This document shows, piece after piece, positions 1 through 64,000 of a DNA stretch of 64,000 bases. The notes beneath the pieces are model-generated. The model did not search any database and had not been told where the DNA came from. It saw only the letters and a program-made list of their open reading frames with translations. A program made the translations under genes and the position numbers. The DNA comes from Candidatus Yanofskybacteria bacterium (GTDB lineage Bacteria; Patescibacteriota; Minisyncoccia; 2-02-FULL-40-12; IGHO2-12-FULL-4): contig JACPNK010000006.1 of NCBI GenBank assembly GCA_016185525.1, forward strand, positions 22,728 to 86,727. The letters are read 5' to 3'. Position 1 is the stretch's first letter; every line of letters begins with the position of its first letter.

Positions 1-121
1 AGCGGAGCGCGCATAGATCCGTGGGAGATTACCACGTTGATAGGATGCAGGTGTAAGTCCGGTAACGGATTCAGCCGAGCATTACTAATAGATCAATTAA
101 TTCCTTGCAAGATTAAGCCTA
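1..121 (+). rRNA. rrl: 23S rRNA, 3' terminal segment (gene continues upstream of window)
   Basis: Near-exact match to the conserved 23S 3' end (GTTGATAGG..GGTGTAAG..TACTAAT..GATTAAGCCT, cf. E. coli ACGTTGATAGGCCGGGTGTGTAAGCGCAG...GGCTTAACCTT). Confidence 0.75.
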
Positions 122-160
122 AATTTAACTTTACCCAACAAAAAAAACGAGCAAGACATT

Positions 161-372
161 GTGTACAGTGTAAAGGAGTTATACTGCGAGTGCTCCACCT
201 GATCCCATTCCGAACTCAGAAGTGAAATCTCGCAAGGCCGATGATACCCAGCTCTTTTGACCGCAGCACGACATTATTTTTTGTAGACTTAGGGTCTATA
301 GTAATAAAGTTGTTGCAGTGTTGAGATCAAAAGGGCTGGGAAAAGTAGGTAACTCCTCTACACTGTATGCAA
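161..372 (+). rRNA. rrf: 5S rRNA with a ~90 nt insertion in the 3' half
   Basis: Core CCACCTGATCCCATTCCGAACTCAGAAGTGAAA (195-227) is nearly identical to the bacterial 5S loop B/helix III. The 5' segment GTGTACAGTGTAAAGGAGTTA pairs with the 3' TAACTCCTCTACACTGTATGC (helix I). The insertion at 251-340 is closed by CCAGCTCTTTTGA/TCAAAAGGGCTGG. Confidence 0.55.
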
Positions 373-565
373 TACGCTCGTTTTTGTTTGGGGACTCAGA
401 AGCATACCCCCTTGGGGTAAAAGACATCAAGGCCGATGCGTCAGTCCTGTATAAGGCAAAAATTACGCAAAAGCGAAGCGAGGCTATGCCGAGCGGAGTC
501 CCGCCTATATGAAATATGGGCGGGGTAGGTCGTCGCCAGACTAATGGCTTTAATTTTGGATCCGC

Positions 566-16954: not shown

Positions 16955-16957
16955 GCG

Positions 16958-17026
16958 TGGAGCCAAGGGGAATTGAACCCCTCTATCCGAATGACAATTG
17001 CGGATTCCTCACCTTGAGGTGGCCCC
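16958..17026 (-). tRNA. probable reduced tRNA (about 69 nt), tentative anticodon UGU (Thr)
   Basis: Minus strand ends ...AGGGGTTCAATTCCCCTTGGCTCCA (T-arm + acceptor); 5' GGGGCCA pairs with TGGCTCC; atypical D region, so the assignment is uncertain. Confidence 0.4.
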
Positions 17027-63638: not shown

Positions 63639-63910
63639 TCCCCGGTAGCTCAGCGGTAGAGCGGCTCGCTGTGAAATAACGCAGCTACCTAGAGAAATCT
63701 AGGATGAAAAACTTTGGGATAACGGTGAAACCTTTTTTAAAATGGTAACACCGTGGGAACCACGTAAAATGCTAAGGCATCACGTGGGCGCCGTAGAGAC
63801 TAGATACCGAAGCACCCAACAGTAGGGTGGTGATATAGTCCATCCCACTACGAAAGTAGTGGACAAATGTAACGAGAAGGTCGTAGGTTCGATCCCTACC
63901 CGGGGAGCCA
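63639..63910 (+). tRNA. tRNA (tentatively Asn, anticodon GUU after splicing) interrupted by a group I intron
   Basis: 5' exon TCCCCGGTAGCTCAGCGGTAGAGCGGCTCGCTGT; 3' exon TAACGAGAAGGTCGTAGGTTCGATCCCTACCCGGGGAGCCA; acceptor halves pair perfectly. Confidence 0.6.
63673..63869 (+). ncRNA. group I intron (197 nt) in the tRNA anticodon loop
   Basis: Follows a U in the exon and ends in G; contains the R-like GTAGAGACTAGA and S element GATATAGTCC. Confidence 0.55.
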
Positions 63911-64000
63911 AAAGTTGACACAGTACAGTTTTAGTGTTACTGTACGATCAGTTCTCGTTAGATTAAAGTCAAAAATAGGGTGCAAATGAAAAAATCTATC

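Follow-up and report, generated by a model that had tools for sequence, protein, structure and literature searches.

Enlarged 5S rRNAs have been catalogued by Stepanov & Fox (2021), who recorded 89 of them in 15 types, with inserts of 13-109 nt and with helix IV among the regions affected (PMC7812874). Their hosts are distributed among the Clostridiales, Halanaerobiales, Thermoanaerobacterales, Alteromonadales, and Halobacteriales, and the catalogue contains no member of the CPR (PMC7812874). In Halococcus morrhuae, the sole 5S type is nearly doubled by one structured insertion of 108 nt, which reportedly occupies an exposed position flanked by loop E and the three-way junction, is conserved among genera, and has been visualized on the ribosome (PMC7530397). 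A further parallel is provided by the intervening sequences (IVSs) of 23S rRNA genes in Salmonella, Campylobacter, Coxiella, and other bacteria, stem-loops of about 100 nt that replace terminal hairpins and occur sporadically among relatives (PMC8708148, PMC11270868). These extra stems are known from helices 25 and 45, rarely from 16S rRNA and not from 5S rRNA, and are removed by RNase III without religation and without harm (PMC8708148). Short IVS-like inserts are also present in the 23S genes of CPR, where extra sequence in 16S and 23S rRNA genes is a phylum-level habit, while none of 645 CPR 5S genes surveyed carried an insertion of 100 bp or more (PMC11270868).

The locus described here contains a 5S rRNA gene of Candidatus Yanofskybacteria in which the helix IV hairpin is replaced by a 94-nt rod. 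In the window, i.e., the whole stretch of 64,000 nucleotides that was analysed, this gene (5S*) occupies positions 171-361, and its identification as a 5S gene with a helix IV insertion is given a probability of about 0.95. The features of the locus are listed below, with L numbers designating the contigs used for comparison.

1-109, plus strand: 3' end of the 23S rRNA, native to the lineage (Rfam RF02541, 72.7 bits, model positions 2815-2925)
110-133, plus strand: remaining native 23S-5S spacer, which aligns with the spacers of L010, L014, and L015 to about 133-138, where similarity ends
134-170, plus strand: cassette leader arm, the left inverted repeat (CCCAACAAAAAAAACGAGC...); 134-181 pairs with 350-391, and the arms are also present in L033
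171-361, plus strand: 5S rRNA gene (5S*), 191 nt, ends set by comparison with the L033 orthologue, which Rfam aligns in full
171-180/352-361, 185-190/229-234, 196-224, and 236-246/341-350, plus strand: helix I, helix II, helix III with loop C, and loop E/helix V of 5S*, respectively
247-340, plus strand: helix IV extension (the rod), predicted as an unbranched hairpin of 94 nt and about 39 bp from folds and from comparison with relatives
362-393, plus strand: cassette trailer arm, the right inverted repeat (GCTCGTTTTTGTTTGGGG) with a T-run, delimited by the inverted repeats, the fold, and L033
394-541, plus strand: decayed native-type 5S remnant without loop C and without the 5' strands of helices I-III
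394-402 and 403-417, plus strand: within the remnant, ACTCAGAAG and a 15-nt hairpin insert (at GAAG^TAAAAG)
418-438 and 439-524, plus strand: within the remnant, TAAAAGACATCAAGGCCGATG, identical to the native 5S of L034, and 86 nt replacing helix IV
525-541, plus strand: within the remnant, GTAGGTCGTCGCCAGAC
542-559, plus strand: native 5S trailer (TAATGGCTTTAATTTTGG), identical or nearly so in L010, L014, L015, L031, L033, and L036

The gene is located at the 3' end of the rRNA operon, 61 nt after the end of the 23S rRNA, and the order 23S, 5S, ORF276, RodA, rpoB is the same in relatives; the rpoB and rpoC genes are compact, in keeping with a Parcubacteria/CPR host. The initial annotation had proposed that 161-372 encodes a 5S rRNA with an expansion, a canonical core, and paired terminal halves, which is borne out by the fold, by an alignment of 14 genes, and by covariation. 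The conserved core CCACCTGATCCCATTCCGAACTCAGAAGTGAAA is found at 195-227, and all core elements are present. In the minimum-energy fold of 161-372 (-84.1 kcal/mol, z = -7.3, none of 200 shuffles as good), a long terminal stem is followed in order by loop A, helix II, helix III with loop C, and the loop E/helix V strands flanking one hairpin. This fold contains the conserved loop C (CCCAUNCCGAAC), helices II-III, the three-way junction, and helix I formed from the 5' and 3' ends, as well as the loop E/helix V strands CCGAUGAUA (238-246) and AAAGUAGG (342-349). Of the 17 positions in the terminal arms ACAGTGTAAAGGAGTTA (165-181) and TAACTCCTCTACACTGT (350-366), 16 are paired, and the pairing extends outward to 134/393.

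When the window gene is aligned with 13 other Parcubacteria-type 5S genes, the insert appears as a single block of window-only columns, and the invariant CCGATGRTA and RAGTAGG columns are filled on either side of it; in the window, these loop E/helix V motifs (CCGAUGRUA ... RAGUAGG) correspond to 238-246 and 343-349. The 5S structure laid on this alignment leaves 84% of the cells paired, with 23 of 37 pairs changed on both sides (0/500 shuffles as good), while sliding the partners by 1-3 columns as a control leaves 34-43% paired. Changes on both sides affect 14/15 pairs in helix I and 5/6 pairs in helix II, and covariation supports all the 5S core helices.

The Rfam 5S model RF00001 places a 5S at this locus with 50.2 bits, above its gathering score of 38, with a match that covers 171-260 only. 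This alignment is local and mis-delimited, and 41 model positions corresponding to helix IV/V are skipped. The limits are an artefact, since the model takes the insert arm GCUCUUUUG (251-259) as the 3' strand of helix I and pairs it falsely, and the insert-free L033 orthologue is aligned end to end with 69.7 bits, its helix I 3' strand ACUCCUCUAC corresponding to window 352-361. Thus, the short call is explained by the insert itself, and the 5S identity stands.

The base of the rod is formed by CCAGCTCTTTTGA (248-260) and TCAAAAGGGCTGG (327-339), including one G-U pair, with C247-G340 as the 14th pair, and the rod folded alone reaches -39.6 kcal/mol (z = -6.0). Its 94 nt stand in place of the 13-nt helix IV/loop D hairpin GCGGTTTATCCGC of L033, a net gain of 81 nt. 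A stem-closed insertion of about 90 nt had already been recognized in the helix IV/V region and placed at 251-340; the insertion and its closing stem are confirmed, but its limits, compared with L033, are 247-340. The predicted structure of the rod, known from one strain, is based on thermodynamics and not on covariation. Minimum-energy and centroid folds keep the rod independent; yet 251-259 can make 9 pairs with the 5' strand of helix I, an alternative pairing that could disturb folding.

With an insert of at least 13 nt in an otherwise complete core, 5S* belongs among the expanded 5S rRNAs, with which it shares an intact core, one helical insert in the range of 13-109 nt, predicted here to fold on itself, and a described region of insertion, helix IV (PMC7812874). 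As in that group, standard annotation overlooks or truncates the gene, and the genomes concerned also carry 5S remnants with insertions (PMC7812874). Nevertheless, 5S* is found outside the 15 described structural types and host orders, its host being Ca. Yanofskybacteria and its rod having no similarity to the fetched sequences. Unlike the expanded 5S rRNAs described so far (PMC7812874), it belongs to a CPR/Patescibacteria host, its whole helix IV/loop D hairpin is replaced, and the insert is restricted to one strain instead of being genus-wide. Moreover, the copy of Desulfitobacterium dichloroeliminans with a 69-nt helix IV insert coexists with normal copies, whereas in the window lineage, where a single operon is normal, no intact 5S other than 5S* was seen. 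The comparison with Halococcus likewise concerns a 5S rRNA nearly doubled by one structured insert, although the window insert is located at the buried tip of helix IV and has no conservation record (PMC7530397). A 5S expansion of this size had been called uncommon in the initial annotation, which agrees with the absence of insertions of at least 100 bp among the 645 CPR 5S genes (PMC11270868) and of CPR members in the catalogue (PMC7812874). Both the size threshold of the survey and its Rfam-based gene extraction would have missed 5S*. The kind of enlargement is known, and 5S* is its first CPR example, at the least permissive site and apparently in a sole-copy gene.

Relatives were found via RodA homologues and the contigs carrying them, L036 and L037 being among them. 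The identity of rpoB to the window at the amino acid level is 98.3% in L010-L013, 91% in L014 and L015-L017, and 85% in L031, L033, and L034. A plain 5S of 108-110 nt directly follows the 23S gene in L010, L014, L015, L031, L034, and L036, and no 5S is found upstream of the LysM homologue in L009. The comparison with related 5S genes reveals the same insertion in none of eight related lineages, and the rod is absent from L033, L018, L024, and every native-type relative. In L033, the orthologue shares 94-96% identity with the window 5S and its flanks, carries a normal hairpin at helix IV, and differs from the 5S* core at only 2 positions. Since L033 has the 13-nt hairpin and other relatives have plain 5S genes, the rod is specific to the window strain and, judging from these sequence comparisons, would likeliest be a very recent insertion. 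A scan of genome contigs for a generic 5S pattern with a gap of 96-126 nt before RAGTAGGNAAC yielded 3 matches, all of them normal 5S genes with a chance downstream motif; this 3' motif is over-specific, the native type ending in GGTCGTC. A scan of metagenome contigs with a 5S*-specific 22-mer gave zero matches.

The nested-cassette context of the gene is less expected than the expansion itself. The 5S* gene is enclosed by a leader/trailer stem of about 45 bp in a 260-nt cassette (134-393) bounded by inverted repeats, and the fold of 128-400 reaches -105.6 kcal/mol (z = -8.1). The remnant that follows has no Rfam 5S match at 394-541 and a fold (z = -1.6) no better than shuffles, and 525-558 shares 97-100% identity with L010, L015, and L031 over the 3' end and trailer of their 5S genes. 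It resembles the 5S remnants known downstream of rRNA operons (Stepanov & Fox 2021) in being a partial 5S with recognisable motifs and insertions after a stem and T-run. Unlike those, it represents an ancestral gene displaced by a cassette, the new gene being nested in the old one in L033 and L022. In L033 (5060-5470), the remnant is also present, and the cassette is nested in a still recognisable native 5S that is split at CCGA^ACTYAG and retains its 5' half.

The affinities of 5S* are incongruent with those of its surroundings. Identity to the native 5S of its own clade is 62%, and only 21-24% in the helix I/II columns, while identity to distant Parcubacteria contigs is 80% (L018) and 74% (L024). 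Only the window and L033 carry the cassette, which L010 lacks despite an rpoB identity of 98.3%; window 134-558, comprising cassette and remnant, is 94-98% identical to L033 5130-5449. The 23S end (15-109), in contrast, matches the closest relative L010 at every position (100%) but shares only 77% identity with L018 and with the cassette-bearing L033. These figures also led to the rejection of an intron-type co-conversion, in which the 5S would have brought the 3' end of the 23S gene along. These comparisons indicate that 5S* is not the ancestral 5S of the lineage and that an incoming cassette displaced the native gene. L033 is the outgroup to the window, L010, and L014/15, yet its cassette resembles that of the window far more closely than its 23S end does, and L010 has no cassette. 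Hence, horizontal transfer probably brought cassette and remnant into the window lineage once this had separated from L010. The right-hand join of the exchange would fall within the homologous 3' end and trailer of the 5S, and the left join would be illegitimate, in an A-run near 134-140.

Displacement of 5S genes is found beyond this locus. A metagenome scan for a 5S core with a second RAGTAGGT motif 70-100 nt further on detected 13 loci, two of which are true helix IV expansions, namely L025 (720-910) and L030 (12290-12520, minus strand). In L025, the Rfam call is shortened to 728-811, and a CheW-like neighbour argues against a CPR host. L030 is found on a contig with a T-box, also contains a long hairpin in the helix II/III region, and its 5S is missed by Rfam. 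In most of the other scan loci, 3' fragments of a second 5S come after an intact one, on Parcubacteria-type contigs (cf. L018, L023, L024, L026-L029), and in L022 (2690-3010, minus strand) an outer 5S, split at GAAGT^TGAAAAT, encloses a complete inner one that has a long stem of its own. All inserted pieces in these loci start with a C-run and end with a G-run; this holds for the rod, both ends of the cassette, 403-417, the insert in loop C of L033, and the cassette of L022. On this sequence evidence, it appears that in Parcubacteria the 5S has repeatedly been replaced by a cassette entering the resident gene. A more speculative joint reading, which we consider improbable as a whole, is that inverted-repeat 5S cassettes enter resident 5S genes, pass between species, and leave decaying shells, and that the rod, of the same C-run...G-run type, is excised by RNase III from the only functional 5S, which would make it the first naturally split bacterial 5S.

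Several other features were observed around the locus and in its relatives. Downstream of the native trailer, a gene with a LysM domain (628-1428) is preceded by a near-consensus TTGACA-17-TATTAT promoter at 566-594, and a 202-aa ORF (1668-2276) has no Pfam match. Both genes, which fall within 559-2336, are absent in six related lineages, where the 5S trailer runs into the ORF276 homologue; in L033, the slot after the 5S contains different genes, including a calpain-like peptidase, and this slot looks like an insertion hot spot. On the other side, immediately upstream of window base 1, the 23S gene of this strain contains more than 139 nt of non-23S sequence with TAAAGTC/TTAGTC repeats, seen at positions 1-139 of the same-strain contig L004. 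Relatives have a short hairpin (GGACGCAAGTCC) at this site, just before 23S model position 2815, so the L004 stretch would be, from this comparison, another strain-specific rRNA insertion. In the relative with 91% rpoB identity, an RVT_1 reverse transcriptase is found beside a bAvd-family gene after rpoC (L014 9711-11115), looking like the pair of a diversity-generating retroelement, and the window has no such pair there. At 63641-63930 of the window, a group I intron (Rfam RF00028, 63663-63862, 55.4 bits) splits the anticodon region of a tRNA gene, and this tRNA is not reported by ARAGORN. Finally, a permissive Rfam scan gave a weak partial tmRNA match at 16955-17026 (minus strand, 21.9 bits, below the gathering score), and ARAGORN reported no tmRNA.

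Regarding its function, 5S* is the only intact 5S after the 23S gene and within the 64 kb, with no other detected at E <= 0.1, and is probably the functional 5S of the genome. Selection on it would be indicated by the core, since only 2 core positions differ from L033, against 84% identity and indels in the remnant. 5S* belongs to another 5S lineage than the ancestral gene of its clade, and its cassette is nested in the resident 5S of a related lineage (L033); the window lineage probably gained the cassette and the dead 3' part of the host gene by recombination, with loss of the ancestral 5S. After the transfer, a self-contained rod of 94 nt took the place of the helix IV/loop D hairpin of 13 nt, a change confined to this strain. 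For the rod, the reading preferred here is excision, which is considered tentatively and at somewhat less than even odds. Transcribed with the rRNA operon, the rod would fold apart from the 5S core, and RNase III would both free the 5S from the leader/trailer stem and cut the rod out without religation, as in 23S IVSs. The product would be a two-piece 5S with a helix IV about as short as that of other Parcubacteria, in which the tip of this helix is naturally reduced (PMC9297842).

Several features are consistent with excision. The predicted rod offers a base stem of 14 bp within about 39 bp overall, and it has two properties of 23S IVSs, an extended stem-loop in place of a terminal hairpin and a sporadic occurrence among close relatives. 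The small genome, the single rRNA operon, and the presence of RNase III in the lineage are also shared with IVS-bearing bacteria, although the rod is in helix IV of a 5S. To our knowledge, an excised IVS has never been described for any 5S rRNA. The gene rnc for RNase III is kept in CPR (PMC12641178), RNase III being the double-strand-specific nuclease that these bacteria keep, and Stepanov & Fox consider a long helix IV insert sterically hard to dock in its cavity (PMC7812874). Against this reading, the clade has a record of replaced and decaying 5S genes with helix IV insertions, and the insert could mark the onset of decay.

Alternatively, the rod may be retained as an expansion segment, with an RNA of 191 nt intact in the 50S subunit and a rod of about 100 Å protruding from the central protuberance region without a required function, an outcome judged slightly less probable than excision. 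The characterised expanded 5S rRNAs are all self-folding helical modules with an intact core, those that are the sole type are considered functional (PMC7812874), and the H. morrhuae insert is reportedly visible on the ribosome by cryo-EM (PMC7530397). The window rod is cleanly closed at the helix IV stem of an intact core, and CPR ribosomes lack uL30 and several surface elements (PMC9297842), which might free space. However, the known retained inserts occupy exposed sites (loop B/helix III, junction) and not the helix IV tip. Helix IV docks in a cavity, and the 69-nt helix IV insert of D. dichloroeliminans was judged likely incompatible with binding (PMC7812874).

The main rival reading, considered unlikely, is that 5S* is a pseudogene in the making, which the helix IV insertion either has already inactivated or is now inactivating while a canonical 5S works elsewhere in the genome. 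Stepanov & Fox propose pseudogenes for helix IV-expanded copies and report 5S remnants with insertions (PMC7812874), the dead 5S copies of this clade bear helix IV insertions (window 439-524 and the L033 remnant), and 5S turnover is frequent in these lineages. However, the motifs and helices of 5S* are all intact, and the scarcity of core differences from L033 contrasts with the divergence of the remnant. Moreover, 5S* holds the operon position after the 23S gene with an intact processing stem, the rod replaces the hairpin precisely with a perfect closing stem, and no other 5S is found in the 64 kb, a single 5S being usual in CPR (PMC9297842).

A further explanation concerns the origin of the rod and is compatible with any fate: a small palindromic mobile element, MITE/REP-like or left as the footprint of a cassette-type insertion, could have landed in helix IV and produced the rod as one of its copies. 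The shared C-run start and G-run end of the inserted pieces speak for this origin, and so does the rod being a replacement and not a simple loop insertion. However, we regard it as quite improbable, and a multi-copy element is not supported: neither self-BLAST nor a repeat search found a second copy of the rod, nor a further copy of the cassette, in the 64-kb window, no rod-like sequence was found in the 40 fetched loci of relatives or in phage and plasmid collections searched by BLAST, and two scans of viral contigs gave no match. Derivation of the rod from a duplicated cassette leader/trailer stem was likewise set aside as unproven. The 5' arm of the rod matches the cassette leader weakly, at 10/11 positions in the best local match (17/2000 shuffles), the other three comparisons are non-significant, and the similarity is lost after correction for the four comparisons.

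Insertion sequences and introns were reportedly found in CPR 16S and 23S rRNA genes by Brown in 2015, and relatives of the window genome carry LAGLIDADG-bearing 23S inserts. The rod shares with such CPR insertions the habit of extra rRNA-gene sequence, but differs from them in lacking an intron fold or ORF and in being shorter than 100 nt (PMC11270868). Group I and group II introns, which would be recognized by a catalytic fold seen by covariance models and roughly 200 nt or more, were rejected, since no intron family matches 100-640 even at E <= 10 and the 94 nt are unbranched and contain no ORF.

The rod sequence is identical base for base in independent Logan assemblies from several SRA runs (L001-L005), and all same-strain contigs reaching the rod region carry it, two extra contigs ending short of this region. 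An assembly chimera or misjoin within the conserved rRNA gene is extremely improbable: 5S cores are repeat-like in metagenomes and Logan contigs L001-L003 start inside the gene (window 198-200), but L004 spans the 23S, the entire 5S* with its insert, the remnant, and the LysM gene with a sequence identical to that of the window, four more contigs, assembled from other runs, agree fully across the insert or the 3' junction, and both insert flanks are orthologous to L033.

The locus also points to an annotation blind spot. Rfam pipelines shorten 5S* (171-260) and L025 and miss L030, and CPR surveys reporting no 5S insertions would have overlooked all three. The cassette/remnant architecture and the incongruent phylogeny together offer a concrete example of an rRNA gene being replaced through horizontal transfer in single-operon bacteria. 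If 5S* is the sole 5S, the ribosome of this bacterium either accommodates, at the tip of a helix thought to dock in a cavity between functional centres (helix IV), a rod of about 100 Å, or runs on a nicked, two-piece 5S. Either outcome would inform the need for helix IV/loop D and the steric argument by which helix IV-expanded copies have been called pseudogenes.
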